This document shows positions 2,882-19,883 of a stretch of DNA of 20,000 nt, piece by piece. The stretch is from the IMG/VR virus record IMGVR_UViG_3300034989_000018; one strand, written 5' to 3'. This DNA comes from an uncultured virus (IMG/VR IMGVR_UViG_3300034989_000018) (Duplodnaviria; Heunggongvirae; Uroviricota; Caudoviricetes). The notes under the pieces were generated by a model. That model searched no databases, was not told the origin of the DNA, and saw only the letters and a list, made by a program, of their open reading frames with translations. Made by a program: the position numbers and the translations under genes. Position 1 is the first letter of the stretch. Every line of letters begins with the position of its first letter.

Positions 2882-2918
2882 AATACGTGGGTAACTTAGT
2901 TATCCATGTATTTATTTT
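2882..2918 (+). terminator. Intrinsic terminator after ssb
   Basis: AATACGTGGGTAAC-TTA-GTTATCCATGTATT stem with G-U pairs on the + strand, followed by TATTTT. Confidence 0.65.
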
Positions 2919-2943
2919 AATAAAAAATGGAGGTTTTTTAGAA

Positions 2944-3348
2944 ATGGATGAAAAAAAATATTTTTATGATGTTGATGGATTATTTAAATTAATGAAACCA
3001 TTTAAGACTTCTACAGATAACATTAAATCATTTGACAAAAAAGCAAATAATAGAAGTGCTTGTTTATTCATATCCATTTATCGTGGATACCCTAAGACAC
3101 AAATACGTGTAGACTTATGTAAAGAAAAAAATCATCATGGAGATTTAATAAGTATATCAGATATAATTTACAGGTCGTCAATACCCGGATTATACGAATA
3201 TTGTAATGAAACAATAGAGATAATTCAAAATTGGCAAAAAGGTCATAATCTTATTTTAGAAATAGATAAAGAACTTATTAAGATGGATATAGAAAATATA
3301 GAGAAAGTTAAAGAACTTATTGAGATGAATATCTTAATAAGATATTAA
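2944..3348 (+). CDS. Hypothetical protein
   Basis: GGAGG at 2929-2933 supports ATG 2944 rather than the GTG at 2887, which lies inside the terminator hairpin. Confidence 0.7.
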   Translation: MDEKKYFYDVDGLFKLMKPFKTSTDNIKSFDKKANNRSACLFISIYRGYPKTQIRVDLCKEKNHHGDLISISDIIYRSSIPGLYEYCNETIEIIQNWQKGHNLILEIDKELIKMDIENIEKVKELIEMNILIRY

Positions 3349-3363
3349 AGGAGTTGATATTAG

Positions 3364-6267
3364 ATGATAACAGAAAATTTAAAGTATCAGGTGTTTGATA
3401 CAGAATGTCTTAAAGGTTCTTATTTCTCTTACCAATGGAGAAATGAGAATATGGAAGAATCAAAAATGATAGAGTGCAAAACTGATGAAGATTGCTATAA
3501 ATTCTATAACAATCTCAAAAAAGCTAACAGGGCTATGTATTGCTATTCAATTAACTACGACAAAACCATGCTTAATGCTCTTTGTAAATTCGTTGAAAAA
3601 GGAATTACCGATATTCCGACAAAATTAAGAAGAGTTAACGATTATTTGATAATGGGAGAATTGAACTACTTTAGAATCAATACAGAATTCTGGTGTAATT
3701 ATTATTATAGACTAGAAATTCAATTTGATAATAAAACTGAGTTATTTAAAGAATCAATAAAAAGAATAAGTTTAAATGAAAATGATAAATATATTACATC
3801 TTTTTTAGAAGAATTTCCTTACTTGTTAGGACAATCTAAAGTTTTTAAAAACCTTAATATTATAGATGTTCCTAAAATGCTTTATTACTTCACAATAAGA
3901 AAAGATGGTGTGCTACGAATGAATATATCATTAAAAAAATTACAATTATATGAGGAACAAACTAATATTACTCATGACTTTGAGAAGTCATTTGACTTTG
4001 AAGAGCTTGTAAAAGATGGTAAATATAAACAATTTAAAAAATATGCTTTAAATGATAGTGACTTTCTATTCAGGTATTTTCAAAAAAAATGTCTTCCTAT
4101 CATTGAAAATAGAGTCAAGGCATGTGAGGCAATTAAAATGTTTGATGAATCATTTGAACCTACAGAACGAATGATTCACAGTGAAAATAATACAAACTTA
4201 TTAATTAATGCGTTTTCGCTTAAACAAAAACAAAATGATAAAAAAGTACAATATGAAGATAATACACTTGAATTAGATGAATTAACATATGGTGAAATGT
4301 TAGATGAATTAAATGAATTAACTGAAAAATCAAATGGTACATATGAAACCGAATTTATAAGCGGAGAATTAATACCTGTGGGTACTGATTATTTCATTAA
4401 AGAATTTAATGAAATTATAGAAAAATATGAACACTTTAAAAAACCTAAAAATAAGTTTGGTATAGATTTCAAAAAAGCACTTGAATATAAAGATGTTATT
4501 GATATGACAGAATACATAAAACCCACCGGCTATGAAAAATTTGATAATTTTGTAAAATTTGTTGATATGCATCCTTATGTTACAAAAGATAAAAAATTAA
4601 AAGAATTATACTGTGAATCATACGAAAAAGAGTATATTAATGATGATAAGCAACAAGAACATGAAGGCCAAATACAGGTAATAGTAGATTCATTTGATAC
4701 TTTTAATCTGTTTGGGACTACAGTTACAATAGGTCTTGGTGGTATACATGGAGCAATAGAGAAATACATAAATGAAAACTTATGGCATCTAGATTACAGG
4801 AGTCTGTATCCTAGTATAATTATCTTATTCGAGAAATATTATGGAAAAATAATAAAAATGCCATTATACAAAGCACTCTATAATTTTAGGAACTTTGAAG
4901 TTAAAGTACAACTAAAAGAAATAGATGAAAAAATAAATGCTATCTATACTAAAATAGATGAAGGAGGTAATGATGGAGCAGATATAATGGAATATCAAGG
5001 TGAATTACAAGAATTAGAAGAATCAAAGAATAGATTAGAGTACTTATCTGACGGTTGTAAATTGCTTCTAAATAGCTTATATGGACTAATAAATTCAGAA
5101 TTCAACTTTAGTATATCCCACAAACAATTAGGACGTTTTATATGTTTATATGGTCAATACAGGGTAATCGAATTATGTAAACTAATCATGAAAAATAGTC
5201 CACAAAGTAAATTACCAAACATAAACACTGATGGAATAATAATAGATAATATAGATAAGTTTATCTGTAGTGAAATAGCAATCCAGGATAAACAAGATGA
5301 CATAGTAATTTTAGGTATAAACAAGATTGATAAAATCATACAAAATGATGTAAATAATTATATAAAAATAACAGAAGGTAAGACGAAAACTAAAGGCAAC
5401 GCTTATAGAACAGGTATAAAACAAGCATTCCATAGATTTGAAAAGTTAACATGTAACATAAGTAATGCTTTAAAACTTATTAATCATGAAAAACCAGAAG
5501 TATTGCCTGTTTTATTCCATAATACAGCTGTAAAATCTACTATCAAATTAGAAGATGAAGAAACCAGTAAAAATAAAGTATATTATCTTACTACTCAGGA
5601 CAAAGGTAAAATAGCAATCAAATGGATTGCAAATCCTATTGTATTAACATGGGGAGGAGAATACATGTATTTCACAACAAATAAGGATGATGCAGACCCA
5701 CAGATGTATCTAAAGTTTGCACAAATCACCAAAGATAAGATAATGAACTTCACACTTACAGAAACAGATAATATAAAATATTATCCTTATGAATTAATAG
5801 AAGATACAGATAATAGTAATTTAAAGAAAAAGAAAGACATAAGGAAAATGTTAAATAAAATAGCTAAAGGATTCATTTGTATCAATGGGTTAAATGCTGA
5901 TATTAAACAAATCATGGTCGATGATTTGAAACCAGTAAAAGAACTTAGTAATTACACCATGACTAAGATAATAAATAGTACAGAAGTTAAAGGATTCAGC
6001 CTTAAAAATGATGAAGAATTTACTTGTTTAGCTACAAATAACAAAAAGGATATTAAAAGACTTGATGAACTAAATACATTCAAGGTAACCCATAAATCAG
6101 GACACGTAATGTATGTATTAAAAAATGCAGTATTCATGGACTTAGATAAATATAATAAGGTTAATATAGTAAATGCTGATTATATACCAGTAATCACATT
6201 AGATGGCGAATTCACTTGTAATCTACAGGAAATAAAAGTTTATAGTGAGGAAGGAGTAAAAAAATGA
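3364..6267 (+). CDS. polB: Family B DNA polymerase with 3'-5' exonuclease and a C-terminal extension
   Basis: ExoI VFDTE, ExoII NYDKTML, ExoIII YALNDSD; pre-A GGIHG; motif A LDYRSLYPSII; motif B KLLLNSLYG; motif C NTDGI. Confidence 0.92.
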   Translation: MITENLKYQVFDTECLKGSYFSYQWRNENMEESKMIECKTDEDCYKFYNNLKKANRAMYCYSINYDKTMLNALCKFVEKGITDIPTKLRRVNDYLIMGELNYFRINTEFWCNYYYRLEIQFDNKTELFKESIKRISLNENDKYITSFLEEFPYLLGQSKVFKNLNIIDVPKMLYYFTIRKDGVLRMNISLKKLQLYEEQTNITHDFEKSFDFEELVKDGKYKQFKKYALNDSDFLFRYFQKKCLPIIENRVKACEAIKMFDESFEPTERMIHSENNTNLLINAFSLKQKQNDKKVQYEDNTLELDELTYGEMLDELNELTEKSNGTYETEFISGELIPVGTDYFIKEFNEIIEKYEHFKKPKNKFGIDFKKALEYKDVIDMTEYIKPTGYEKFDNFVKFVDMHPYVTKDKKLKELYCESYEKEYINDDKQQEHEGQIQVIVDSFDTFNLFGTTVTIGLGGIHGAIEKYINENLWHLDYRSLYPSIIILFEKYYGKIIKMPLYKALYNFRNFEVKVQLKEIDEKINAIYTKIDEGGNDGADIMEYQGELQELEESKNRLEYLSDGCKLLLNSLYGLINSEFNFSISHKQLGRFICLYGQYRVIELCKLIMKNSPQSKLPNINTDGIIIDNIDKFICSEIAIQDKQDDIVILGINKIDKIIQNDVNNYIKITEGKTKTKGNAYRTGIKQAFHRFEKLTCNISNALKLINHEKPEVLPVLFHNTAVKSTIKLEDEETSKNKVYYLTTQDKGKIAIKWIANPIVLTWGGEYMYFTTNKDDADPQMYLKFAQITKDKIMNFTLTETDNIKYYPYELIEDTDNSNLKKKKDIRKMLNKIAKGFICINGLNADIKQIMVDDLKPVKELSNYTMTKIINSTEVKGFSLKNDEEFTCLATNNKKDIKRLDELNTFKVTHKSGHVMYVLKNAVFMDLDKYNKVNIVNADYIPVITLDGEFTCNLQEIKVYSEEGVKK

Positions 6268-6722
6268 ATAAAAAAGAGATTTATTGTTTAATAAGATATT
6301 TTGAATTAGAAGCAGGAGAAGATTTTTTTGACCAGAATGAAACTATAATACAGCCATACCAATTAATATTTTGGCTGCTTGGTAAAAAGTACATAACACC
6401 TAAACAATTTAATTTAGCAGTATCAGAAAAATTATTAGGTCTTAATGAAATATTTACAGGATATGAGAAAGAATATGCTATATTTCCTAATGGTGAGGCC
6501 GAAGAAATACCAGAAAAATATAAGTACTACATCATAGCTGAATTAATGCAAGATTGTGAAGTATATCAACATAGACTAAAAAAAATATTAGAAGAACATA
6601 ATTTAGTTATAAATGCTTTAGAAATACCAAATAAACAATGGCATGAATACAGAAATACAGTAAACGATGAATATAAAGAACTCAATAAACTTACAATAGA
6701 AAGGATTAAAAATAATGAATGA
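6264..6722 (+). CDS. Hypothetical protein
   Basis: AAGGAG RBS; ATGA overlap with the polymerase stop. Confidence 0.75.
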   Translation: MNKKEIYCLIRYFELEAGEDFFDQNETIIQPYQLIFWLLGKKYITPKQFNLAVSEKLLGLNEIFTGYEKEYAIFPNGEAEEIPEKYKYYIIAELMQDCEVYQHRLKKILEEHNLVINALEIPNKQWHEYRNTVNDEYKELNKLTIERIKNNE

Positions 6723-6990
6723 CATAGAAAAATATAAGAATAAAAAAGTCTATATAGTCTTTGATGAAGAAGGTAACAGGAAAGCCATTGGAAATGGTAA
6801 AAATATTTATATTTCTGAAGCTCGTATAAAAGGAAGTCTTACTCAACAAACAAAATATTACCTGCACGATGGAATTGAAGAACTTATAAAAAGATTTGGG
6901 AGATATACAATAAGGACCTATGAATTAAAAGATACTGGAGAAGAAATAACAATCGAAGATTTTATTAAAAATGAAATAAAAAAAAACTAA
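6715..6990 (+). CDS. Hypothetical protein
   Basis: Overlaps the previous stop; AAGGA RBS; co-oriented in the operon. Confidence 0.7.
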   Translation: MNDIEKYKNKKVYIVFDEEGNRKAIGNGKNIYISEARIKGSLTQQTKYYLHDGIEELIKRFGRYTIRTYELKDTGEEITIEDFIKNEIKKN

Positions 6991-7016
6991 ATCATATATG
7001 TAAAGGAGGATAAAAA

Positions 7017-7361
7017 ATGAACTATGATGAAGCAATATCAAAAAATATGGATGAATTAAACAATGTTTGTACAGAATTAGACAGACTTATGGGAAGAAAA
7101 AAACATCTACTAATTCAAACAGAAGAATATAAAAGAGAAAAGAATAAAAAAGGATTAATAATTACAGACCATAGCATTGTCAGTTACTTTAAAAGAGTAT
7201 TAGGATTCAATATCGAAGAAATAAAAGAGCGAATAATTAAACAAGATTTAAAGGGACGATACAAGGTAATGGGCGACGGTATTTTCGATCAGGGTGATTT
7301 CAGAGTCGTAGTAAAAAATAATTCTACCATAACTATTTTAAATAAGGAGATTAAAAAATAA
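7017..7361 (+). CDS. Hypothetical protein: N-terminal coiled coil plus ITDH..VSY..RV phage domain
   Basis: AAGGAGG RBS. ITDHSIVSYFKRVLG and the C-terminal VVVKNNSTITIL resemble the TDHAxxRYLER-type small phage domain (recalled, not searched). Confidence 0.7.
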   Translation: MNYDEAISKNMDELNNVCTELDRLMGRKKHLLIQTEEYKREKNKKGLIITDHSIVSYFKRVLGFNIEEIKERIIKQDLKGRYKVMGDGIFDQGDFRVVVKNNSTITILNKEIKK

Positions 7362-7378
7362 ACTGTAAATAAAAAAAA

Positions 7379-7416
7379 TAACATGACTGTTATTATTATA
7401 ACAGTCATGTTACAAT
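7379..7416. promoter_or_regulatory. Perfect 14-bp inverted repeat overlapping an extended -10 (operator and/or minus-strand terminator)
   Basis: TAACATGACTGTTA-TTATTA-TAACAGTCATGTTA (7379-7412); TG-n-TACAAT at 7408-7416; A-run on the left side. Confidence 0.55.
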
Positions 7417-7443
7417 ATAAGAAACTGTAAAGGAGTTAAGATA

Positions 7444-7833
7444 ATGAAAATTAGACAACTGACAAAAGACCATAAAAAATATTATGATGGTAGGTTGAAA
7501 TATATAGCACCTACAAGTAAGTATGAGTTTATAAACTTATTTGATGAGAGAACTGAAGTAGATTTTGAAGAAGTGAAAACCCAAATCATAAAGTTACGTG
7601 AGGAATTCTATGAATTGATGGCAGAACCTACATATACAATAGAATTTAGAAAAGAGCTGTTTGACTTAATAAATGCGGGAATCAATTTAGCTCATTGTCT
7701 TAGCTTGTATTATGATAAAAACCATAAATACAAGAATGATTATGAGATTTATAACCGTCATGTAAATAAAATAAACCGCAGACTATTAAACCCTGATTAT
7801 AACTGGGGAATTAAATTAGAAAAAGAGTATTGA
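7444..7833 (+). CDS. MazG-like all-alpha NTP pyrophosphohydrolase (putative)
   Basis: KLREEFYEL followed by KELFDL matches the EExxE...ExxD signature; AAGGAG RBS. Confidence 0.55.
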   Translation: MKIRQLTKDHKKYYDGRLKYIAPTSKYEFINLFDERTEVDFEEVKTQIIKLREEFYELMAEPTYTIEFRKELFDLINAGINLAHCLSLYYDKNHKYKNDYEIYNRHVNKINRRLLNPDYNWGIKLEKEY

Positions 7834-7899
7834 AATGTATCATTGGTGTATGATAGAAAAAAAGTGTCCAGATGATTGTAAAAGAGAGGATGATAAATA

Positions 7900-8193
7900 A
7901 TGGGAATTATAAAAAAATACGACTTACAATGTGATTTTTGCGAAAATAAATTAAGTGATGATTATAAAGAAGTACAAGAGTTTGATATGATAGGACAAAT
8001 TATGCATTTTGCGAAAGATAATTTATGGGACTATAAAAAATTGAAAGGAATTCAAAAACAAAAATGGAGATGTCCTGAATGTAGAACAAAAAAAGCAGGT
8101 GAAGAAAAAGAAGAAAAAGAAGAAGAAGAAATAAATTATTATTATAAGTTTACAAATTTATTTGAGGGTTCAGAATTTGAAAAAAAGGAGTGA
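7900..8193 (+). CDS. Zn-ribbon protein
   Basis: CDFC ... CPEC cysteine pairs; acidic tail; GAGGA RBS. Confidence 0.7.
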   Translation: MGIIKKYDLQCDFCENKLSDDYKEVQEFDMIGQIMHFAKDNLWDYKKLKGIQKQKWRCPECRTKKAGEEKEEKEEEEINYYYKFTNLFEGSEFEKKE

Positions 8194-8198
8194 TGTAA

Positions 8199-10136
8199 GT
8201 GTACAAAAAAAATAAATATGATAATAAAAGCCTACATTTAGGGCACGACTTATCAAAATTAATATTTAATTTAAATAAATTAATAAATAGGAAAATAAAA
8301 GCAATTGGATTTCCAATTGTCTTCTTTTTATTTTATATGATCCTAAATGAAAAAATAAAAAATTCGACTCTACATAATCATACACATTTTTTAATATTTA
8401 TGATAATACTTATTTATATTATTTGCTACATTACCTCGTTGATCTTGTTAAATGAGTACTATAATATAAAGTTTTTCCATGCAAAAGTAATAACAGGCAA
8501 TCAATATATAAACTTTACTAACTATACTAAATCTAATAAATATGAAAAAATATGGTTATTTACGACTAATGTACCTGTCAAATACTTGATTGCTAATAGT
8601 GATATAGTTGCTAATGTATTAAAAAATCATGTAGTAGAAATTAGACAACGTAAACATAGTTTTACTATGATAGAAATTATTACATCTAGCAAGGTAATTA
8701 ATTATAAGGAACTTGCTAAATTTGGAGATAGTAATATTATAAAATTACAATCAGCCTTTAAATTAAATGGTATAAATATATATAATTGCTCACAAGAACT
8801 TGAACAATACAAAGATACTATTTATTTTGATTGTGATGAAAAAAAATTAAGTTTACTAAAGGTCCTGGATGAAATTAAACACCTTACTGCTATAAGTAAC
8901 ATGACTATATATAGCAATCAGAACACCGACTTTAAGCTAATTATAGAAAAACCTGTCGGAATTATTGATTTTACTGAGTTGCTAATAGAAAGCGACTTAG
9001 ATAAAGAAACTAATATCTTGCTAGGTATAGATAACAATAATAGAGAAATAGCAATAAGTATTTTTGATATATATCATAGTATTGTAGCAGGTAGCACAGG
9101 GTATGGAAAAAGTAACCTAGGACACGTAATAATTAGTAGTTTATTAAAATCAGGTCTTGATATAGTAAATGTTTTACTAGACCCTAAAAAATCCGAACTT
9201 AAAAGGTATCGTGATATTCAAAATGTATTCTATTCAGGTGATAAAAAAGAAATAATTAAAATCCTCGAATTATTAGTAATTGAAATGGATAAAAGAAATA
9301 TCTTATTCGAACAGGATAAATTTATAAAAGATATAGATACATGGAATATAAAAATGAAACATAATAAATTACCTTATATTGTTATCTACATCGAAGAAAT
9401 AGCTGATTTGATTTTATCAACTGACAAAGAACTTAAAAAATCATTTGAAAACTCAATAATAAGACTTACTCAATTAGGTAGGTCTACAGGATTTAGATTA
9501 TTTCTTAGCACTCAATTTCCAAAAAAAGAAATCATTAATACAGTTATAAAAGCTAATTGCGCCACTAGATTTGGATTTGGTACAATTACTAACATAGAAT
9601 CAAGAGTAATTTTAGACGATGATAAATGTAAAGGACTTAACAAAGGACAAATGATTTTACAAACTAATGATATAGAAATAAAAATTAAAGTGCCTTTACT
9701 AAAAAATAATGTTATCGAAGATATTGTTTATTATCTTGAAGACTTGGATAAATTAGCTAAAAAGACCATGAGTATATATTTTATATCGAATATGTCAAAT
9801 ACCCTAAATAACTGTAAGTTAGACGTTAAAAAAGATATACCGAATATACCGAATATACCGAATAATATAAATAAAAAAGTTAATATAAATAAAGATAAAG
9901 TATTACTCATACGAAAATACAATATCGAAAATGAAAAAGATTTGTTAAATTTTTACATAGATTGTAATGAAAATAATCAAATATTATCAGTAGATAAAAC
10001 TTTAAAACATATAAATATAGGTAAAACTAAATTACAAGAGTTCAGAAAAAAATTAATAACAGATGAATATTTAATTGTGGATAATAAAAAAGTATTCTTA
10101 AATAAAAATAAATTAAAAAATTATAAAATATTATAA
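8199..10136 (+). CDS. FtsK/SpoIIIE-family P-loop ATPase with N-terminal membrane anchors and a putative C-terminal wHTH
   Basis: GTG start with AAGGAG; two hydrophobic segments; Walker A GSTGYGKS; LLDPK; Walker B-like IYIEEIADL; GRSTG arginine finger; STQ motif. Confidence 0.88.
   Translation: MYKKNKYDNKSLHLGHDLSKLIFNLNKLINRKIKAIGFPIVFFLFYMILNEKIKNSTLHNHTHFLIFMIILIYIICYITSLILLNEYYNIKFFHAKVITGNQYINFTNYTKSNKYEKIWLFTTNVPVKYLIANSDIVANVLKNHVVEIRQRKHSFTMIEIITSSKVINYKELAKFGDSNIIKLQSAFKLNGINIYNCSQELEQYKDTIYFDCDEKKLSLLKVLDEIKHLTAISNMTIYSNQNTDFKLIIEKPVGIIDFTELLIESDLDKETNILLGIDNNNREIAISIFDIYHSIVAGSTGYGKSNLGHVIISSLLKSGLDIVNVLLDPKKSELKRYRDIQNVFYSGDKKEIIKILELLVIEMDKRNILFEQDKFIKDIDTWNIKMKHNKLPYIVIYIEEIADLILSTDKELKKSFENSIIRLTQLGRSTGFRLFLSTQFPKKEIINTVIKANCATRFGFGTITNIESRVILDDDKCKGLNKGQMILQTNDIEIKIKVPLLKNNVIEDIVYYLEDLDKLAKKTMSIYFISNMSNTLNNCKLDVKKDIPNIPNIPNNINKKVNINKDKVLLIRKYNIENEKDLLNFYIDCNENNQILSVDKTLKHINIGKTKLQEFRKKLITDEYLIVDNKKVFLNKNKLKNYKIL
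9837..9863 (+). repeat. 3 x 9-bp tandem repeat ATACCGAAT (IPN x3) in the FtsK linker
   Basis: Direct reading of the sequence. Confidence 0.9.
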
Positions 10137-10179: not shown

Positions 10180-10207
10180 AAAAAAAAGACCGTCAATTGA
10201 CGGTCTT
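10180..10207 (-). terminator. Intrinsic terminator between the convergent transcription units
   Basis: Perfect palindrome AAGACCGTCAATTGACGGTCTT (10186-10207) with an A-run on its left, giving a U-tract for the - strand. Confidence 0.85.
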
Positions 10208-11139: not shown

Positions 11140-11221
11140 TTTTATATCTCCTTTTAATTTTATTTTTCTATTAATATAGAAATGCTTATAAGGCGATTTT
11201 AACGCCAAATAAGCTAATATT

Positions 11222-11690: not shown

Positions 11691-11791
11691 GTTTTTTATT
11701 CTCCTTTTCCTTTTTTTATAATTAATCATATATAAGATATTGTGAATATCTTTATATATGATTGAAATAACTTAGCAAGCTTTTAAACTTA

Positions 11792-12130
11792 CTAAGCTAA
11801 TAAATTAAACTGTTTGTCAAAATCTAGATCACTTAAAGAAATTAATTCAAATTCCAGCTTCTTTAGTTGCCTTAAATTATATGTTTTACTAGTATCAATC
11901 TTAAAGCCAAAATCAAGCCGATTTAACAAATTATTAATTGATTCTAGTATTTTATAGTATTTATATATTTCTTTAAGTTCTGTGTTTAATTTTAGCCTTG
12001 ATTCATATATTAAAGTTAATAAAGATTTTGACTTAAAATTAATAATAGAACCATTTAAAACCATTTGTATATGAGTTTTATCAAGTTCTATTATTGTTAG
12101 AATTTTTAATATTAATTCTACTCTCATCAT
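11792..12130 (-). CDS. Hypothetical protein
   Basis: AAGGTG RBS; 112 aa. Confidence 0.7.
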   Translation of the reverse strand: MMRVELILKILTIIELDKTHIQMVLNGSIINFKSKSLLTLIYESRLKLNTELKEIYKYYKILESINNLLNRLDFGFKIDTSKTYNLRQLKKLEFELISLSDLDFDKQFNLLA

Positions 12131-12159
12131 AAAAACACCTTTTAATATGATTTTTATTT

Positions 12160-12444
12160 CTAAATTATTTCTAAACCTGAATAAGATATTAAATAAACTT
12201 TATATTTATTAAAACTTCTTATAGGTGTATTATAATCCCATTCAAAATTTAAGAACTTATTTAAATTATTAAAATTTTCTTTAAATATTTTATACATATT
12301 TTTTTCTTCCATCATTTCAAAACTTAAATAATAGTCATTTGTATGTATTGAAATATTATGTATAAATGTAAAATCATTAAGTGTATTTTTTATTTTATTC
12401 ATATCTTCAAAAACTTTTTCTTTACTAATTTGTGTCTTACTCAT
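12160..12444 (-). CDS. Hypothetical protein
   Basis: GGAGGAGG RBS. Confidence 0.75.
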   Translation of the reverse strand: MSKTQISKEKVFEDMNKIKNTLNDFTFIHNISIHTNDYYLSFEMMEEKNMYKIFKENFNNLNKFLNFEWDYNTPIRSFNKYKVYLISYSGLEII

Positions 12445-12463
12445 TGTTTTTAGTCCTCCTCCA

Positions 12464-12796
12464 TTATTTTATTTCGATATATAATTTATTATCAAGTGAA
12501 TATCTCCATGCATATTCATTGCAGATGTAAGAAAAATAAGCAATACCAATTTCCCAAGATTCATGAGAAAACATATTACTATTTGTCCATTTGTCTCTAG
12601 TGTTGTAGTAGTTCAAATGATCTATTAATGTCATTTTAGCATCAATATGATTTTCACATCTGTAATAATTTTCAAACATTTTTATTTCAAAGTGTTCAAA
12701 AATTTTTTCATCAATTTTTTTTAAGCATGTTCCAAAATGCTCAGATGATAGTATTTCTACTATCATACCGTTTTTCAATTGTTCTATTAATCTCAT
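12464..12796 (-). CDS. Hypothetical protein
   Basis: AAGGAGATAAAAAA leader. Confidence 0.8.
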   Translation of the reverse strand: MRLIEQLKNGMIVEILSSEHFGTCLKKIDEKIFEHFEIKMFENYYRCENHIDAKMTLIDHLNYYNTRDKWTNSNMFSHESWEIGIAYFSYICNEYAWRYSLDNKLYIEIK

Positions 12797-12874
12797 TGTT
12801 TTTTATCTCCTTTTTATTTTTTATTTTTTTATTGAAACAAGTGATCACGCTTTGACACGTGATTACCTTAGATA

Positions 12875-13501
12875 CTAGATTATCAAATAATTATTTTCCA
12901 ATTGTGCATATCTTTCATGTAAATCATCTAGATTGTACAATTTTTCATTTAATACTTCAGAATCTTTAATTAAACGCCATCCTAATGGATGACTTTTTTC
13001 ATTGTCAATTCTTTTGATTTGATAACCAAAAGAATTGAATCTTTTTTCTAAATTATCAATATGATCATTAGCAGTTATGTAAAAACTAGGATGTTGAATT
13101 TCAAATGATTCTTCGATTAATTCTATGTCTATTAATCCATATTGCCAATTTTCATTTTGTTGTTTAAAATACTCTCTTATCTCTCTCTTTGAAAGATTTA
13201 AAGTATCTTTAACATTATTCACTGTTTCTACTTCATAATTTGTAAAATCTATAAAGTAGTCAATTCCTCCTGTATTCCCTAATTTAATTCCTTTTTGTCC
13301 TAGTTTATAATTTAATTTTTTTGTAGAAATTAAATAATAAACATCCCAAATGTTTCTTCCTCTGTTATTTCTTCTAGTTGTGTATGCTTCTAACCTAATT
13401 AAATAGGCTAGAATGTTTTTTGTTTTTTTGCCTTTAACAGCATATATTATGCTATTAGAAGTTTCCTTATTGTTTTTTATTGATGTTATTTTTTCAATCA
13501 T
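12875..13501 (-). CDS. Hypothetical protein
   Basis: AAGGAGATAAAAAA leader; 208 aa. Confidence 0.8.
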   Translation of the reverse strand: MIEKITSIKNNKETSNSIIYAVKGKKTKNILAYLIRLEAYTTRRNNRGRNIWDVYYLISTKKLNYKLGQKGIKLGNTGGIDYFIDFTNYEVETVNNVKDTLNLSKREIREYFKQQNENWQYGLIDIELIEESFEIQHPSFYITANDHIDNLEKRFNSFGYQIKRIDNEKSHPLGWRLIKDSEVLNEKLYNLDDLHERYAQLENNYLII

Positions 13502-13567
13502 TATTTTTTATCTCCTTTTTTTTATTGAAATACCCTTGTAAACTTTGATATTCACAAGGATAAAAAT

Positions 13568-13882
13568 TTAAAAATCTTTGTGGTAATTATCGAGGATATG
13601 AGATATTTTAAATTTAAAGTCTACTGTTATATAAACTATATATTTAAAATAATCATAGTCCTCCATATATTCATTCTTATAAAAGTGATGTTTATGATAG
13701 TGTTCTTTTATTATAAGAACATTATCATCTTTAAATATAATGATATTATCTTTATATTCATATTCACTATATTCTATTGGTTTTAATTCTGGCATATCTG
13801 CCTTATCTTCAACAATTACAATATCATCAATTGATTCTTTTAAATTAATTGATTTTAATATTTCCTTTAATTTAATTTTCAT
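13568..13882 (-). CDS. Hypothetical protein
   Basis: AGGGAGAATGAAAA leader. Confidence 0.78.
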   Translation of the reverse strand: MKIKLKEILKSINLKESIDDIVIVEDKADMPELKPIEYSEYEYKDNIIIFKDDNVLIIKEHYHKHHFYKNEYMEDYDYFKYIVYITVDFKFKISHILDNYHKDF

Positions 13883-13967
13883 TATTTTTCATTCTCCCTT
13901 TTATTTTTATTTTTATTGAAAAAAATTACTGCAATGTGATTTACAGTAATTTTGGTTACATTAGTAT

Positions 13968-14768
13968 TTAAGAGTATTTAAGTTCTAATAATTCATCTCG
14001 AAAATAGATTGAAACATTCTTTCTACCATGTCGTATTACCTTAGTATGATTATATTTCATGGTGGACAATAGATTCATTAAACCTGTTGTACTTTGTTTT
14101 AAATTAGTACCACCTATTTTAACGAACTTCTTATCACTAAGAAATTGCAATGATAACAAGTATTCTTGTATCATTTCATCATAATTATCTTTGCCATATT
14201 GCATATAGTTTAAAACTTCAAGTATATTCTTGATATTAAACCAATCTGAATCATGCAAAAAATGATTGTTTACGATTTTTAAGTTTTCTAACTCAAAGCT
14301 AAAATGAGTTGAAAACTCATTATAATTTTGATAACAATTAATCTTGTTATCAAAAATATTCTCAAAATCATAATCAAATTTTAACATTAATGAATTTTTG
14401 TAGGCTACAAATAATTCATTGAATAACATGTCGTATTGACCATAACCACCATTTTTAAAGTCATAATTATTAATATCAATTTTGTATTTAGACAATATCC
14501 ATTCAAATCTATTGATGAATACTTTTAATGTACTATCAGTTAAAAGCGGTTTGTCTAAAGAATTATCTAAGTCTTGCCTTAAGTCCCAGACTATATAATC
14601 TCTTATTAATTCTTTAAAACTCAATCTATCAGACTTTGATTCAATATAATAATTAGTTGAATTAACCTCAACATAATCAACCATTATACAATCATTTAAT
14701 CGTCGTCCTAAATGTCTACCATTTTTAAAACCTATATTTACATTATTTGTTAGTTTTAATTCATTCAT
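13968..14768 (-). CDS. Hypothetical protein
   Basis: Consensus AAGGAGAATAAAA leader; 266 aa. Confidence 0.82.
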   Translation of the reverse strand: MNELKLTNNVNIGFKNGRHLGRRLNDCIMVDYVEVNSTNYYIESKSDRLSFKELIRDYIVWDLRQDLDNSLDKPLLTDSTLKVFINRFEWILSKYKIDINNYDFKNGGYGQYDMLFNELFVAYKNSLMLKFDYDFENIFDNKINCYQNYNEFSTHFSFELENLKIVNNHFLHDSDWFNIKNILEVLNYMQYGKDNYDEMIQEYLLSLQFLSDKKFVKIGGTNLKQSTTGLMNLLSTMKYNHTKVIRHGRKNVSIYFRDELLELKYS

Positions 14769-14849
14769 TTTTTTTTATTCTCCTTTTATTTTTATTTTTT
14801 ATTGAAAAAGGTAGTCACAACTTGACTTGTAAATACCTTAGATTATTAA

Positions 14850-15080
14850 TTATCTTATTTTTTCAAAAATTGAAAAAAAAGATTTTTCAAGATTTTTATT
14901 GGCAAATTCTAAACCATCTATATCTTCTATATCTTCTACCCCTATCCAGGTATAAGAATTAATTTCCCAATCTGCCAAACCTTCACAAAAATTTTCTTCT
15001 TCTTCATAAGTAAGAAATATATTTTCAATAATGTTACTTCCATTAAATGTTATTACTGTTAATTTAGGATTCATATTCAT
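14850..15080 (-). CDS. Small acidic hypothetical protein
   Basis: Consensus leader; rich in E and D. Confidence 0.78.
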   Translation of the reverse strand: MNMNPKLTVITFNGSNIIENIFLTYEEEENFCEGLADWEINSYTWIGVEDIEDIDGLEFANKNLEKSFFSIFEKIR

Positions 15081-15135
15081 TGTTTTTATTCTCCTTTTTT
15101 ATTTTTATTTTTTAGAAAGGGACTTACATCCCTTT

Positions 15136-15573
15136 CTAAATTGGTTCTTCGTCGCTATAGTAATAATCCAGTTGTTCTTTAATATTGTTTATATCAATGA
15201 TTTGTTTTTGACTATATAAAATATAGTCAAACAAAGCATCCTCTTCTGTTTCTGTCTCTTCTTTATTAATCACCAAATTTAAATCACTGATGTCGAAATT
15301 CATATCGAAATCATAAATTATAATGCGTTGATTATCTATTGCTTGGTTTCTTTCATTAGTGGACAATGATTCTGTTTCCAATTGTCCAGTTTTTAAATTT
15401 AAAATTGCATAACCATGCTTGTATCCTTTGTTAAAGCCTTCCCAAGCTTTTTTCAAGATTTCTATTTCATCTAATTGATTAATCAAAGACAATATATCGT
15501 CCTTGGTTAATACCTCAATTCTTTCATTTTGTCCTAGCCCGGTTCCTTTTGCTTTTATTGTTGTTTTTTTCAT
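15136..15573 (-). CDS. Hypothetical protein (acidic C-terminal half)
   Basis: Consensus leader; TAG stop embedded in the downstream hairpin arm. Confidence 0.8.
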   Translation of the reverse strand: MKKTTIKAKGTGLGQNERIEVLTKDDILSLINQLDEIEILKKAWEGFNKGYKHGYAILNLKTGQLETESLSTNERNQAIDNQRIIIYDFDMNFDISDLNLVINKEETETEEDALFDYILYSQKQIIDINNIKEQLDYYYSDEEPI

Positions 15574-15657
15574 CTTTTTTTATTCTCCTTTTTATTTTTA
15601 AGTCCAGTGGACTATTAGTAAAAAGTAATCACGCTTTGACACGTGATCACTTGAGAT

Positions 15658-15990
15658 TTAATTAGTTTCAATCAATAAAAAACCTTCGTCCTTGACGAAG
15701 TATTTTAAACAAGGTATTCCTTTGTCTTCAATCTGTTTTCCGTTCTTATAGTGACCTAAAAATACTAGGTCTTCTTTTAATCCATTAACTAATCGATATC
15801 TTAAGATACCTATTGTATTAATTTGATACATGTATTCAGTATCATTTACTATATGATACCTATTAAATAAGCAATTCATATGATCATATATATTGCTTTC
15901 TAATGTACTGTTATCCAAGTATTCCTTAAATACTTTGGATAATTTCATAATCTTTTTGTTTGTTAAATTATTAATATCTTTTTTTGTCAT
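15658..15990 (-). CDS. Hypothetical protein
   Basis: Consensus leader. Confidence 0.8.
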   Translation of the reverse strand: MTKKDINNLTNKKIMKLSKVFKEYLDNSTLESNIYDHMNCLFNRYHIVNDTEYMYQINTIGILRYRLVNGLKEDLVFLGHYKNGKQIEDKGIPCLKYFVKDEGFLLIETN

Positions 15991-16059
15991 CTTTTTTTAT
16001 TCTCCTTTTTTATTTTTAGTAATCAATAACCAAGCTTTAACACCTGGTTATCAAAAAAT

Positions 16060-16539
16060 CTATACTACTATCCTTTTTTTATTTAATTTATCATTTTCAT
16101 ACTTTTTACTACCATATGTCGACCGTATTTGTTCCATTGACCATTCTTTTCTATTTCTAGAAAAGCACCAATCTGGCCTATAATACCATTGTTTCTTTCT
16201 TGCAGCCCATCTAAATTTTAATGACTTCAAAAGGTCTTTTATTGGCCTTGTATTTCCTGATAGCCATATATACCAATTGCAAATTTCGATTTCTATATCA
16301 TTAAATTTAATCAATTGGGTTACGATATCTTTAAATATTTCAGCTTCATATACTTGACTATCTGCTTTTTTAGTTGACTTTTTATCTTTTAAGTCCTTAA
16401 TAGCCCTGTCATATTGACTATTAATTTCTTTGATAATACTATCATCAACATTTTTATTGATATCTGGATGATATTGTTTGACCAGTTTCCTATAAATATT
16501 TTTGATATCATCGATATTTGTACAATCTTTAAAATTCAT
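16060..16539 (-). CDS. J-domain (DnaJ-like) protein
   Basis: IKNIYRKLVKQYHPD...IKEINSQY is a J-domain with an intact HPD motif; it is followed by a W-rich C-terminal domain (WLSGNT..IKDLLKSLKFRWAARKKQWYY). Confidence 0.88.
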   Translation of the reverse strand: MNFKDCTNIDDIKNIYRKLVKQYHPDINKNVDDSIIKEINSQYDRAIKDLKDKKSTKKADSQVYEAEIFKDIVTQLIKFNDIEIEICNWYIWLSGNTRPIKDLLKSLKFRWAARKKQWYYRPDWCFSRNRKEWSMEQIRSTYGSKKYENDKLNKKRIVV

Positions 16540-16620
16540 ATTTTTTATTCTCCTTGTTTAAAGTCACTAGGACTATTATTTAAAAAAGCAATCACGCTTT
16601 GACACGTGATTACTTGTAAC

Positions 16621-16881
16621 TTATATTTTTTTAATATATATCCATCTGTCGGGTATCTCTGTTTCAACCACGGGACTTATCCCGTGTTTGTCAAAATTTA
16701 CATTTTCATGGATTTTAGTAATTTTATATCCATCAATTTGTTTCGTATTAAAGCCTTTTGAAAGTTCCGTTATTATTTCTTCCAGGGCATTTTCAGGATT
16801 ATAGAACCCTTGCCCATTTAAATATGAAAGAAAAGAACTTTCATATCCTAAATTACATATTACTATTTCGTATTTTTTCAT
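16621..16881 (-). CDS. Hypothetical protein
   Basis: Consensus leader. Confidence 0.78.
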   Translation of the reverse strand: MKKYEIVICNLGYESSFLSYLNGQGFYNPENALEEIITELSKGFNTKQIDGYKITKIHENVNFDKHGISPVVETEIPDRWIYIKKI

Positions 16882-16988
16882 AATTTTTTTATTCTCCTTT
16901 TTTTTTAAGTCCAGTGGACTATTATTTAAAAAAGATATTCACAAAATGACTTATGAATATCCTGGTAATTTATTTATGATAATACTGA

Positions 16989-17417
16989 TCAAAAAAATCC
17001 TTTCATATTATTTTTGCATTTTTTTGAAATGCTATTAAATTTATTAAATTCAATCTTAAATAATAAATTATTATGTAAATTCTTGATGTTTCGCATTGTA
17101 TCAAGATAATAACTTTTAAGCTCTTGTTGATAAAAATGTTTAAAACTATTATAGAGTAAATTTAATTCACAATAATTTAATTGATCTATATCTTTATGAT
17201 TTTTTCTAATTTTCATAACATGAAAATTAATGTAATAATGATTTTTTTTCTTTTTATCAAGTACGCTAAAAAAATTGACTTTTTCTTTATTACAATAGCA
17301 TATTGTAATTTTATTTGTATCGATGCATTTTAGTACATCTTTCAATGACATTAATCCATTTTCAAAATCCATTTGATTTAATATGGATTTTTGTATTTGT
17401 TTTAATGTTTTTTTCAT
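16989..17417 (-). CDS. Hypothetical protein, paralog of 18439-18891
   Basis: Shares MKKTLKQIQK.ILNQ.DFEN, NHYYIN, YQQE and LHNNL.FKIEFNK with that gene. Confidence 0.85.
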   Translation of the reverse strand: MKKTLKQIQKSILNQMDFENGLMSLKDVLKCIDTNKITICYCNKEKVNFFSVLDKKKKNHYYINFHVMKIRKNHKDIDQLNYCELNLLYNSFKHFYQQELKSYYLDTMRNIKNLHNNLLFKIEFNKFNSISKKCKNNMKGFF

Positions 17418-17515
17418 AATTTTTTTTATTCTCCTTTTAATTTTTATTTATTAAAAAAGATATTCACAAAATAACTTATGAATATCCTGGTATATTTATT
17501 ACTTTTGAATTTGAA

Positions 17516-17890
17516 TCATCTATCCATTAATATTAATTCAATCTTTTGCTGTATCTCAATATCTTTATCAAGATCATTATTTCTTTCTTCATCCCTTTTT
17601 AATTGATGTATTGATTCATTATCTGGGATATTTAATACACCCTCTAAAGTACTTAATAAAGGCATTAAAGCGTGAATTATTGACGCACTATCATTTACTC
17701 GTTCTTGATAAAGAGCTTTCAAAATAAACCTTTTTCCCTCATTTTTATTGAGTACTTCCAAACATTCTTTCATTTTATAAAAACTTGTCCTATAAAGCTC
17801 TTTTGATTCTTTATAAGAATCAAGTAATCTTAAATATCCCTTATTATCTATTGTTTTCTCTTCTTTAATTATTCTTTTTGGTGTTTTCAT
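17516..17890 (-). CDS. Hypothetical protein
   Basis: Consensus leader. Confidence 0.8.
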   Translation of the reverse strand: MKTPKRIIKEEKTIDNKGYLRLLDSYKESKELYRTSFYKMKECLEVLNKNEGKRFILKALYQERVNDSASIIHALMPLLSTLEGVLNIPDNESIHQLKRDEERNNDLDKDIEIQQKIELILMDR

Positions 17891-17973
17891 TTTTATTCTC
17901 CTTTTTTTTTAAGTCCAGTGGACTAATAAAAGGTAATACAAATTTGACTCTATATTACCCTAAGCAAAAACTT

Positions 17974-18360
17974 TTAATGATATTTCATTATGTACAAACA
18001 ACGATTTTTTAAATAATTCGTTATATAATATTCAAGTTCACAAAATGTTAAATCATAATTTTCAAATGTTTTTAAAAATTCATATTGAATATATATCCAT
18101 GACTTAACATATAATTTCTTGCCATTTATAGGATTTTTATAATCTATTGCATACATTGCCTTTAAATATTTACTATTATTATCATTAGTATCATATTTTA
18201 TTTGATTAGTCGGTATTACTTGACTATGGTTCAAATTGCTTTTGTATACTTTATATCCATTAGATATAAAAGAATTTTTGTATCTTCTTATATTATCACC
18301 ATCTGAAATATCAAATAACATTATTGTTTTCTTTGTTCTTAATTTATTTATTGTTTTCAT
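17974..18360 (-). CDS. Hypothetical protein
   Basis: Consensus leader. Confidence 0.8.
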   Translation of the reverse strand: MKTINKLRTKKTIMLFDISDGDNIRRYKNSFISNGYKVYKSNLNHSQVIPTNQIKYDTNDNNSKYLKAMYAIDYKNPINGKKLYVKSWIYIQYEFLKTFENYDLTFCELEYYITNYLKNRCLYIMKYH

Positions 18361-18438
18361 TTTTATTCTCCTTTATTTTAAGTCCAGTGGACTAGTAAAA
18401 AGCAATCACGCTTTGACACGTGATTACCTGGTATTAGT

Positions 18439-18891
18439 TTATTTATAATAATACATATTGTCTCTACATTTTTTAGATACATTTGGATATTTATTAAATT
18501 CAATCTTGAATGATAGATTATTATGTAATCTATCTAAATATTTCATATTATTTAGATAATAATATTTCATTTCCTGTTGATATAAGTGATTAAAACAATT
18601 GTAAATTAAGTTTAACTCTTGATAACTTAACTCGATATCTTCATTATGATTTTTTTTAACTTTCATATTTTGAAGATTAATATAATAATGATTACATGTT
18701 TTCTTATCATATACACTAAAATAATTTATATCTTTATATCTATTGCCTATCCTTAGTCTATATTTTTTACAATAAGCTATCTTAACTTTATTTGTATTAA
18801 TATACTTAATATCTTCTAAGTCCATTAATTCATTTTCAAAATCTATTTGGTTTAAAATACCTTTTTGTATTTGTTTTAATGTTTTTTTCAT
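18439..18891 (-). CDS. Hypothetical protein, paralog of 16989-17417
   Basis: End-to-end similarity, roughly half identical by eye. Confidence 0.85.
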   Translation of the reverse strand: MKKTLKQIQKGILNQIDFENELMDLEDIKYINTNKVKIAYCKKYRLRIGNRYKDINYFSVYDKKTCNHYYINLQNMKVKKNHNEDIELSYQELNLIYNCFNHLYQQEMKYYYLNNMKYLDRLHNNLSFKIEFNKYPNVSKKCRDNMYYYK

Positions 18892-18959
18892 ATTTTTTAT
18901 TCTCCTTGTTTTAAGTCACTAGGACTATTAGTAAAAAGCAATCACGCTTTGACACGTGA

Positions 18960-19142
18960 TTACTTGAATATATATACCGGGAAGCCTATCAATCTTAAAG
19001 CTTCTTTAGTAGTCTTTTGATATCTGGGGTATATCTCTATACCGTCAATTGATTGATTAAAATAATAATTACCCGATTTATATTTTTTTATGATGTAACT
19101 CTTATCGGGGTTATACTTATCAACTAAATATAATTTACTCAT
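18960..19142 (-). CDS. Small hypothetical protein
   Basis: AGGAGG RBS; TAA stop embedded in the first array hairpin. Confidence 0.75.
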   Translation of the reverse strand: MSKLYLVDKYNPDKSYIIKKYKSGNYYFNQSIDGIEIYPRYQKTTKEALRLIGFPVYIFK

Positions 19143-19378: not shown

Positions 19379-19419
19379 GTTTTTTATTCTCCTTTAATTT
19401 TTATAGATTATTATTATTT

Positions 19420-19826
19420 AATAGGTATAAAGGAATTGAACCTTTATTAAAGCACCAGCTACCACGATTTTTTTACATTCTTATGTCTGCTAGGGACTAT
19501 CAAAAACCAAATTAACCCGTTAATCCCTCATTATTATGTATTTTAGGAGAAAAATAAAAATTTACTACTACTAAATAAGTTTGATAGACATTGCCTGAGT
19601 TGGCCGAGAATTTGCCTTGTCATCCATATGATATGAATGACTAGAGTTTATTTAGTACTTGCTAGTTGTGTATCCACGATATATTGCTATGTATTCACCA
19701 GATGATCATCTGTCTTGTGGTTCACGCCCATTAGTCGTGGCCTACAAGTAAAGAGTATATTTTTTGTGACCGATATTTACTTTTCAATGTACTGAATGCT
19801 TTGCGTCAATGTATTGCCCCTTGACA
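19420..19826 (-). ncRNA. Putative structured non-coding leader RNA (~400 nt)
   Basis: No RBS-led ORF; visibly more G+C than the flanks; several nested helices; a GGTTCAATTCC T-loop-like hairpin at its 3' end; lies directly downstream of the strong promoter. Confidence 0.6.
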
Positions 19827-19883
19827 ATTATTATTATATTACACTAATTACACAATGTCAATACTTTTTTTGAAAAAATGTAA
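19825..19883 (-). promoter_or_regulatory. Perfect-consensus sigma70/sigmaA early promoter with UP element
   Basis: On the - strand: TTGACA (19861-19856), 17 bp, TATAAT (19838-19833); upstream TTTTTTCAAAAAAAG tract. Confidence 0.92.

Follow-up and report, generated by a model that had tools for sequence, protein, structure and literature searches.

The early regions of T4-like phages reportedly contain promoter-early stem-loop (PeSL) cassettes, an arrangement attributed to Arbiol and colleagues in 2010. In a PeSL cassette a stem-loop is followed by a leader with a Shine-Dalgarno (SD) sequence and an ATG, the whole lying between small ORFans of the hyperplastic early region, and the sites are found at the junctions where close relatives differ by insertion, deletion or replacement (PMC4122927). 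We have found a comparable layout in the A/T-rich DNA of an unrelated, siphovirus-like phage, in a stretch of 20,000 nucleotides of the IMG/VR record IMGVR_UViG_3300034989_000018 (hereafter the window; G+C 20-29%). Its minus strand carries an array of about 20 small genes, from 19378 down to 10310, and most of the spacers between these genes hold a hairpin with a freely varying stem and a conserved six-base loop.

Results

A hairpin family in the spacers of a phage gene array

Each junction of the array was folded using RNAfold, an unbiased hairpin scan was run alongside, and membership of the family was called by two covariance models, R1 and R2. The 20 minus-strand genes create 19 junctions, and 13 of these contain a hairpin matched by the models, with a 12-13-bp stem and a six-base loop in a single register (Table 1). 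The others comprise one junction with a related hairpin of shorter loop, one with a degenerate copy and four without any hairpin. The spacers of the last group measure 11, 19, 29 and 68 nt, and in three of these the genes lie close enough to be coupled. Four arrays were compared throughout: that of the window, that of one near-identical genome (G001), and those of two relatives that are 71-95% identical in shared genes.

An initial annotation of the window had proposed a hairpin in almost every spacer of the array, and junction folding and the unbiased scan both recovered hairpins at the sites that it listed. Two of its outlying members need qualification. The longer hairpin placed at 11724 exists (11763-11724), but it is of a different kind and forms a second element in the spacer of the 11799-11768 copy. 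There is likewise a hairpin at 11184-11214, proposed as a possible degenerate copy, but it matches neither covariance model and has a 7-nt loop and an internal mismatch. Five of the window copies are near-identical, and we refer to these as A-type.

The hairpins begin from -6 to 27 nt relative to a stop codon, mostly at 4-15 nt, in agreement with the earlier observation that they follow or overlap stop codons. A T-rich tract had been described as the usual sequel. A run of at least four U does follow the hairpin in 23 of 37 contexts, but it is not universal.

Table 1. Positions of the hairpins and associated elements of the array in the window.
Feature	Position	Strand	Remarks
Family hairpin, 12 bp + GUCAAA	18936..18965	-	47.6 bits; loop 18953-18948; 5' arm contains stop codon of 60-aa gene
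Family hairpin, 12 bp + GUCAAA	18400..18429	-	44.3 bits
Family hairpin, 13 bp + GUCAAA	17930..17961	-	42.4 bits; closing A-U
Family hairpin, 13 bp + GUUAUU	17457..17488	-	39.2 bits
Family hairpin, 13 bp + GUCAUU	16932..16963	-	40.8 bits
Family hairpin, 12 bp + GUCAAA	16586..16615	-	41.1 bits
Family hairpin, 13 bp + GUUAAA	16023..16054	-	40.4 bits; no U tract on 3' side
Family hairpin, 12 bp + GUCAAA	15623..15652	-	45.9 bits
Related short-loop hairpin (UGUAAG, or GUAA closed by U.G)	15111..15140	-	missed by R1 and R2; followed by A run, not U run
Family hairpin, 13 positions + GUCAAG	14808..14839	-	44.9 bits; one U/C mismatch among the 13
Family hairpin, 13 bp + AUCACA	13922..13953	-	37.8 bits
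Family hairpin, 13 bp + AUCAAA	13531..13562	-	42.9 bits
Family hairpin, 12 positions + GUCAAA	12839..12868	-	45.2 bits; one A.C mismatch among the 12
Family hairpin, 13 bp + UUAAAA	11768..11799	-	40.7 bits; GUUAAA in both distant relatives
Longer AT-rich hairpin of different kind	11724..11763	-	second hairpin of spacer shared with 11768..11799; kept in G001 and M3, other palindrome instead in L027
Possible degenerate member, top GGCG-UUAAAAU-CGCC	11184..11214	-	no R1/R2 match; 7-nt loop; TT/TT internal mismatch
Mini-hairpin 2, stem AGUC(C)/(G)GACU, variable 3-6 nt loop	15600..15613, 18913-18926, 18380-18393, 17911-17924, 16907-16920, 16561-16574	-	between U tract and ribosome-binding site
Ribosome-binding 11-mer GGAGAAUAAAA	15578..15588	-	exact match
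Ribosome-binding 11-mer GGAGAAUAAAA, 12 array genes (low coordinates)	19382, 18895, 18361, 17891, 17424, 16887, 16543, 15995, 15578, 15084, 14773, 11694	-	
Perfect sigma-70 consensus promoter TTGACA-17-TATAAT, upstream of array	19833..19861	-	kept in all four arrays
Non-coding structured leader, ~450 nt, promoter to first array gene	19379..19832	-	also L010:5291-5745 (-), L027:8260-8775 (-), L098:4055-4565 (+)
Canonical GC-rich bidirectional terminator closing array	10186..10207	.	loop AAUU, run of 6 U; without family loop

The stems keep pairing while their sequence changes

Pairing in the stems was examined by a covariation test. With 16 sequences, 96.2% of the cells were paired and compensatory change was seen at 13 of 13 pairs; none of 500 shuffles scored as high, and controls in which the pairing was slid out of register gave 37-48%. 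The result was closely similar for the 32 distinct sequences of the four arrays, with 95.2% of cells paired and compensatory change again at every one of the 13 pairs (score 0.950, against 0.299 when shuffled, with 0 of 500 as high; slid controls 38-46%). Stems of unrelated sequence thus retain their pairing, as the initial annotation had held. The rows were chosen as hairpins, so the pairing is present partly by construction. What the test establishes is mainly that positionally homologous elements go on pairing while their sequence turns over, and independent support for the family is provided by positional homology, strand exclusivity and specificity.

On which strand, and in which nucleic acid, is the fold under selection? 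Among the non-Watson-Crick oppositions in 31 distinct 30-mers there are 66 G.U, 2 A.C and 5 others, and the imbalance remains 49 to 2 when the closing pair is left out. The excess of G-U on the transcribed strand, noted earlier by hand as 13 against one A-C and one U-C, is accordingly stronger on full count. The sense RNA is predicted to be more stable than the antisense in 29 of the 31 copies, with mean energies of -13.5 and -7.8 kcal/mol respectively, whereas energies calculated with DNA parameters are nearly equal for the two strands (sense -5.7, antisense -4.9). The opposition counts and the RNA energies therefore exclude a double-stranded DNA (dsDNA) operator or cruciform: the fold under selection is a single-stranded one, formed by the sense strand. 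Sequence alone cannot separate RNA from single-stranded DNA (ssDNA) of the sense strand, though RNA is favoured because the hairpins are tied to stop codons and ribosome-binding sites (RBSs).

A structure in RNA or ssDNA with a recognised loop, rather than a dsDNA operator, had been proposed at the outset. The single-stranded sense fold is upheld by the opposition counts, by the energies and by the presence of all 45 copies in the four arrays on the coding strand. Recognition of the loop does not follow, since U2 and A4 alone are fixed and the constraint is perhaps purely structural.

Two invariant bases place the loop in a U-turn register

The loop is a hexaloop N-U-Y-A-N-N with the consensus GUCAAA. 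Position 2 is U and position 4 is A in 100% of cases, and these are the only invariant bases in the 32 distinct rows. Position 1 is G in 74% (also A, U), position 3 is C in 74% (also U, A), position 5 is A in 74% (also U, C) and position 6 is A in 81% (also U, G). The closing pair is U.G (17) or A-U (14) and never G-C, and the next base on the 5' side is always a purine. Loops of orthologous hairpins differ at positions 1, 3, 5 and 6 only, as in GTCAAG/GTCATT, ATCAAA/ATTAAG, ATCACA/GTCACA/ATCATA and TTAAAA/GTTAAA; comparison of these sequences suggests that the four positions change between orthologues about as fast as the stems do.

These data refine what had been described as a shared 8-nt loop with an RT(C/T)A core. 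The conserved loop is real, but its eight nucleotides are a hexaloop plus its closing pair, and the proposed core survives at U2 and A4, not at the variable positions 1 and 3. The contention that such a loop is no ordinary trait of terminators is supported by a 360-kb sample of G001. This contained 21 terminator-like hairpins with hexaloops, of which 2 had both U2 and A4 and none had GUCAAA.

All 32 distinct copies satisfy the sequence signature of a UNR U-turn, namely U at position 2 and a purine at position 4. An excerpt of PMC4105743 describes the hexaloop U13-U18 of the neomycin riboswitch (PDB 2kxm), in which U14-U15-A16 make up a canonical UNR U-turn, position 1 pairs non-canonically with position 6, and position 5 is looped out. 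The phage loop resembles it, to the extent of that excerpt, in having six bases with U at 2 and a purine at 4, so that 1 and 6 would face one another and 5 would be free; the likeness is one of sequence register alone, and the biological contexts are unrelated. Most simply, then, the fixed U2 and A4 may be read as those of a UNR U-turn hexaloop, which would form a compact cap and fold fast, instead of the imprint of base-by-base readout.

The family is confined to four related arrays

The window contains 13 copies of the family, G001 contains 12 and each of the two distant relatives contains 10, giving 45 copies of which 32 are distinct. These arrays represent three diverged lineages of the phage group. 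The distant relatives were reached by pattern searches. In IMG/VR the search led to two contigs of the same sequence, IMGVR_UViG_3300042731_005626 (loci L027, L189) and IMGVR_UViG_3300037297_000083 (L030), and a search with the spacer pattern led to the metagenome contig Ga0316575_10000008 (L098, L120), which at 65,346 bp is probably a complete genome. Homologous arrays are thus found in phage and metagenome sequence, with stem pairing and loop U2/A4 kept in the relatives, as the initial annotation had proposed should be sought with a covariance model.

Within the 2-Mb G001 genome, R1 matched 12 copies, all lying in C5:18457-24880 on the strand of the array, and it found no match in G002, the sole other genome of the genus of G001. 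R2 was run over 997 kb and gave 54 rows (45 places) at or above 33.7 bits, every one of them inside the four arrays; in the ~870 kb of other DNA it gave just two weak rows, of 24.8 and 22.1 bits. No family hairpin was found in the remaining 60 kb of the 69-kb phage or elsewhere in G001. When the whole window was compared with the Rfam 15 covariance models, a single match appeared up to E = 1, to an unrelated snoRNA model (E 0.68), and the hairpins match no Rfam family.

No similar DNA was found in GenBank phages or plasmids by megablast or blastn, and the phage relatives in GenBank are distant and apparent at the protein level only (major head protein at most 32.8% identical). Protein-guided locus searches of IMG/VR returned no relatives with the FtsK-like protein encoded in the window and only the already known contig with a conserved 266-aa protein of the array. 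A 16-mer of the commonest hairpin hit nine IMG/VR loci, seven being single chance matches. The spacer pattern gave only single unrelated matches at 33 loci in genome contigs, and one true relative among 81 loci in metagenomes. Narrow full-text searches of the literature, with subscription journals outside their scope, yielded no account of a hairpin with conserved loop and free stem at phage cassette borders.

Cassettes are exchanged at the hairpin-bearing spacers

The arrays share gene families in differing order. Counting from the first gene, the window reads F0 F5 F6 F1 F7 F6 F11 F8 F2 F12 F13 F3 F4 F20 F9 and onward, L027 reads F0 F17 F8 F7 F24 F2 F1 F3 F4 and onward, and M3 reads F0 F5 F17 F1 F2 F4 F26 F3 and onward. 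The hairpin accompanies its upstream gene for F3 and F4 (4 of 4 each), F5 (3 of 3), F17 (2 of 2), and F1 and F2 (3 of 4 each), the exceptions being F7 and F8, and the module that follows the hairpin mostly moves with the downstream gene.

Two recent differences between the window and G001 can be seen at the nucleotide level. In one, the 150-aa gene at 18439-18891, either lost or gained, is flanked by two A-type hairpins which, with the U tract, share ~35 identical bases; in the other, the 208-aa gene at 12875-13501, likewise lost or gained, is flanked by two UUUCAAUAAAAA...GGAGAUAAAAAA modules. Both fit the exchange between repeated modules described for PeSL sites (PMC4122927). It is in the hairpin-bearing spacers, at their repeated modules, that relatives have gained, lost and re-ordered cassettes. 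The window also holds two paralogues of family F6 in its one array, at 18439-18891 (150 aa) and 16989-17417 (142 aa) on the minus strand, where G001 has one only.

Spacer modules and the ribosome-binding site

On the 3' side of the hairpin the spacers follow a common order: a short U run, then either a second small hairpin (mini-hairpin 2) or a UUUCAAUAAAAA module, an A-rich stretch, the 11-mer GGAGAAUAAAA and the start codon. Mini-hairpin 2 is present in six window spacers, where it is followed by UAAAA, and the UUUCAAUAAAAA module in five. The variable spacing of the mini-hairpin arms argues against a dimeric dsDNA operator; the element may be a 5' stabiliser after processing. Pairing of the hexaloop with the leader or with the mini-hairpin, judged by eye, was considered and dropped, being neither conserved nor present in type-II spacers.

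The 11-mer GGAGAAUAAAA occurs 14 times in the window, against 0.13 expected, and 10 times in L189. As RNA it is GGAGAATAAAA, an exact instance of the strong T4 RegB/S1 cleavage-site consensus, which an excerpt of PMC3014915 gives as GG*AGRAYARAA. No RegB homologue was found in G001, phage contig included, or in the IMG/VR record, and because of this the fit may reflect only a strong, S1-friendly ribosome-binding site.

One promoter, a structured leader and weak terminator signals

The promoter upstream of the array is the only convincing one. A promoter scan gave 172 sites, against 173 in shuffled sequence, and the spacers have no consistent -35/-10 elements, the distance from TTTAC to TAAAA varying from 13 to 17. 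Between this promoter and the first array gene lies the leader, which is 81-87% conserved, higher in G+C than its surroundings, and predicted to form several helices with compensatory changes. It has no Rfam match and contains no tRNA or tmRNA. Within it an invariant UCUCCU is predicted to pair with AGGAGA of the first gene, a segment AAAGGTTCAATTCCTTT resembles the T arm of tRNA, and an invariant boxA-like ACTCTTTAC shares its 7-nt core with the rrn boxA of G001, GCTCTTTAAAA. The same core is that of the gamma-proteobacterial boxA consensus GYTCTTTAANA, as given in an excerpt of PMC5725501. The leader may serve in antitermination or translational control, and leader-encoded antitermination would at this point be a lead, not a finding.

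Considered as terminators, the array hairpins have a median energy of -13.9 kcal/mol and 2-5 G-C pairs (median 3). By a tail-score rule after d'Aubenton-Carafa they scored 1.2-3.4, whereas the two canonical terminators in the window reached 4.7 and 5.4, and only two window copies passed a scan for consensus terminators (a G+C-rich stem, then a U run). The canonical terminators, at 7378-7413 and 10186-10207, are bidirectional, have long U/A runs and close convergent units; they lack the family loop and provide an internal contrast.

The phage and its carrier genome

The plus strand of the window carries a replication module (335-10136) encoding an SNF2 helicase, an Enc34-type ssDNA-binding protein, a DNA polymerase (phrog_1252) and the FtsK-like ATPase. 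In the array, the DnaJ-like gene at 16060-16539 is the sole gene with any family match in Pfam and PHROGs. The array of G001 belongs to its contig C5, which contains a near copy of the window, 93-99% identical and slightly rearranged. Contig C5 is 70,288 bp in length, its initial 633 bases recur at the contig end with 98% identity, and its genes include terminase, portal, protease, major head, tape-measure, endolysin and primase-helicase. From this gene content and the end repeat we conclude that C5 represents an entire siphovirus-like genome of ~69.7 kb, either circular or terminally redundant. Its G+C content is ~25%, against 35.6% in a 360-kb sample of the remaining G001. A scan of 93 open reading frames (ORFs) detected no RNA polymerase, sigma factor, MotA-like protein, RegB, integrase, HUH or other recombinase. 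The carrier genome G001 has RNase E/G and lacks RNase Y.

Two other features of the phage were noted. A 78-aa protein encoded on the phage contig (L009:3227-3463, plus strand) matches the Acb2/Tad1 hairpin domain (E 2.7e-11) and is likely to be an anti-CBASS/Thoeris sponge. Clusters of direct and inverted GTGTAAAA / TTTTACAC(G/T)C repeats (L010:5990-6370; G001 C5 about 25990-26370) lie in the interval that separates the structural genes from the array, on the upstream side of the array promoter; they could be an origin, operator or packaging region.

Discussion

What might a series of such hairpins do? We lean, with limited confidence, towards their being RNA punctuation of promoterless cassettes, as leaky terminators and/or barriers at 3' ends, with the loop as a U-turn cap. 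The array would on this reading be one long early operon of a siphovirus-like phage of ~69 kb, transcribed by the host RNA polymerase; a single operon is suggested because there is a perfect promoter upstream and no consistent -35/-10 in the spacers. Each hairpin would form the 3' border of a promoterless cassette comprising a 5' leader module, a strong RBS, an ORFan and the hairpin itself. For an unmodified polymerase the hairpins would be weak, leaky intrinsic terminators. After an endonucleolytic cut in the U/A-rich spacer, perhaps by RNase E/G, the hairpin would be left as a 3' barrier protecting the upstream cistron, and mini-hairpin 2 or the A-rich leader would then head the downstream message. 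The weak U tracts could permit read-through of some 15 serial hairpins, and so could a stop codon so near that the terminating ribosome would hinder folding, an effect of a ribosome at a nearby stop that is established from work on coupling. The conserved structured leader may add a boxA-like antitermination site.

Several observations weigh against this proposal. The U run is three bases or fewer in 14 of the 37 contexts, and after one copy an A run stands in its place; because of these, termination cannot be the function common to all the hairpins. A stem length of 12-13 bp is unusually uniform for terminators. G1 and C3 are strongly preferred despite the A/T-rich strand, and this preference, taken with the restricted closing pair, exceeds what a U-turn needs and hints at recognition. 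The boxA-like 7-mer CTCTTTA occurs four times in the window where 5.3 are expected by chance, making it weak evidence for antitermination. Finally, G001 may not be the true host, because contig C5 is a free phage genome, circular or terminally redundant, whose G+C is very different.

The hints of recognition lead to an unlikely but serious alternative, in which the hexaloop and the top of the stem dock a dedicated trans-acting factor, either a protein from phage or host or else a complementary RNA, that would decide between termination, cutting and stabilisation at each border. Such docking is familiar from boxB with N and from the histone stem-loop with SLBP, and the YUNR loops of antisense RNAs are an example of presentation by a U-turn. 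The consensus GUCAAA is kept across at least nine stem families that no longer resemble one another in stem sequence; relative to base composition G1 and C3 are enriched, the pair next to the U.G or A-U closing pair is always purine-pyrimidine, the stem length is uniform, GUCAAA is absent from the terminator-like hexaloop hairpins of the carrier genome, and U-turn loops are classic presentation platforms, according to an excerpt of PMC4105743. Yet no candidate factor was found: apart from the DnaJ-like domain, the array proteins have no Pfam or PHROGs family, and a protein atlas gave nothing usable. The first, universally kept protein of the array is modelled as a small alpha/beta protein (pLDDT 75) whose best match in the PDB has E 0.11, with none at E <= 0.001. 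The AlphaFold model of the conserved 266-aa protein is too poor to be informative (pLDDT 41), and the protein atlas offered no lead for it. Moreover, four of the six loop positions vary between orthologues, and the leader contains no conserved complementary UUUGAC element. We are more doubtful of an extended scheme of message punctuation, in which a factor would read the U-turn hexaloop and weak closing pair at each border, in company with the RegB-consensus RBSs and the boxA-like leader, and the marks would double as points of cassette exchange.

Other explanations fare worse against the data. A signal in ssDNA, with the sense-strand hairpin as a recombination or nicking substrate moving cassettes in the manner of integron attC or HUH nick sites, is very unlikely. 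It would account for the cassette-like layout, in which a single promoter serves promoterless ORFans with a structured 3' element and the order is shuffled; a strand-specific fold is a hallmark of attC too, and ssDNA tolerates G.T pairs. But the scanned ORFs include no integrase, HUH or other recombinase, the perfect stems lack extrahelical bases and R/L boxes, and the DNA energies are modest and nearly strand-symmetric. The recent indels are explained by homologous exchange of repeated spacer modules, in one case outside the hairpin, and the fixed distance to stop codons and RBSs points to RNA. We consider it less probable still that the spacers are true PeSL units, each with an efficient terminator and its own promoter, perhaps served by a phage activator acting through an AGTCC...GGACT box, so that the genes would be separate transcription units. 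The order of stem-loop, U tract, conserved box, TAAAA, SD and ATG does resemble the PeSL figures, and TTTACT fits the T4/PST -35 form TTTACW (PMC4122927). Against this, the TTTAC-TAAAA spacing is inconstant, the would-be -10 rarely ends in T, the box is wholly missing from five window spacers, the promoter scan did not rise above shuffled sequence, and no gene for a sigma factor, MotA-like protein or RNA polymerase was detected. Just as improbable is a selfish palindromic repeat of REP/MITE type that invaded the spacers and is no more than tolerated there. The many copies of a short palindrome, with five near-identical ones in the window, would suit it, whereas the occurrence of exactly one copy per long junction, in constant orientation and just past the stop, would not; nor would its restriction to one operon, with none in the other 60 kb of the phage or in the 2-Mb carrier genome, or the retention of orthologous copies with compensatory changes over 71-95% divergence. 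There is, lastly, a scarcely credible possibility that the loop is conserved as the complement of the -35 hexamer of an antisense promoter. Among 38 contexts the antisense hexamer is TTGACA 12 times and TTGACT 6 times, and one copy has TATATT at 17 bp. A -10 at 16-18 bp is near background, however (at least four of six matches in 26% vs 20%; at least five in 10.5% vs 6.2%), the invariant loop positions correspond to hexamer positions 2 and 4 and not to T1-T2-G3, the most important positions of a -35 hexamer, and the sense-strand G.U bias is left unexplained.

The hairpin is a compact RNA motif with unusually clean covariation and is absent from Rfam, and it can be used to find cassette borders in early ORFan arrays, the part of phage genomes that is hardest to annotate. 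The borders that it marks are where genes shuffle between related phages; any reader of the loop is conjectural. Modular shuffling like that of PeSL exists outside the T4-like phages, and without promoters. The array also raises the question of how one operon tolerates ~15 serial terminator-like hairpins, for which ribosome proximity, weak U tracts and leader-encoded antitermination are candidates. If it is true that a factor reads the loop, this would be a new system of post-transcriptional control in phages.

Comparison with known systems

Among comparable systems are the intrinsic terminators and 3' stabilisers within operons, such as the REP/BIME elements at malE-malF. These too are sense hairpins just past a stop, often with a U run, and are expected to be barriers to 3' exonucleases and to cause partial termination; here, unlike those, there is a shared loop motif, a uniform stem, a U tract that is often weak or absent, one copy per cassette and a single operon. 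Mobile palindromes of the REP/RAYT kind were rejected, because the copies all share a strand within a single operon and neither the rest of the phage nor G001 has any. The RNase III sites of the T7 early region (R0.3-R1.3) are likewise conserved intergenic hairpins on a polycistronic early transcript, and the upstream message retains one at its 3' end after processing. They are irregular helices of ~20 bp with an internal loop, in contrast to the mostly perfect 12-13-bp stems and conserved apical loop found here, and an RNase III site of this type is ruled out by stems too short for the criterion of about two helical turns.

The nut boxB of lambda and P22, with N, is also a small hairpin with its information in the loop, in early operons with terminators to be read through. 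BoxB sites, however, number one or two in an operon and combine a stem of 5 bp with a GNRA-like pentaloop, next to a boxA, whereas the array has 13-15 sites and a hexaloop. A lambda-type nut site was dismissed because no boxA-like sequence stands beside the array hairpins, a boxA-like core being found once, in the operon leader only. Integron attC arrays have one promoter, promoterless ORFans, strand-specific hairpins conserved in structure and variable in sequence, and a shuffled order. The phage array differs in having no integrase, perfect hairpins of 30-32 nt without R/L boxes or extrahelical bases, and conservation of the loop only; with no recombinase among the ORFs scanned, attC was rejected. 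The 'hairpin rule' of Mimivirus similarly places a hairpin defined by structure and free in sequence after almost every gene, setting the 3' ends of mRNA, but it applies to a giant virus of eukaryotes, which has an RNase III-like enzyme of its own, and its hairpins have no conserved loop.

The PeSL cassettes are alike in layout, and the differences from them are specific. The array module has no sigma-70 promoter, since its candidate box has a spacing of 13-17 and a -10 without the final T, and it has an extra mini-hairpin of fixed stem. PeSL stems carry a consensus (GN-loop-CN, A3-4G3-loop-C3T3-4), whereas in the array the loop and the geometry are conserved and the stem is free (PMC4122927). 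Modular PeSL-like cassettes were already known in T4-like phages (PMC4122927); the variant described here is conserved in its loop and has no promoter.

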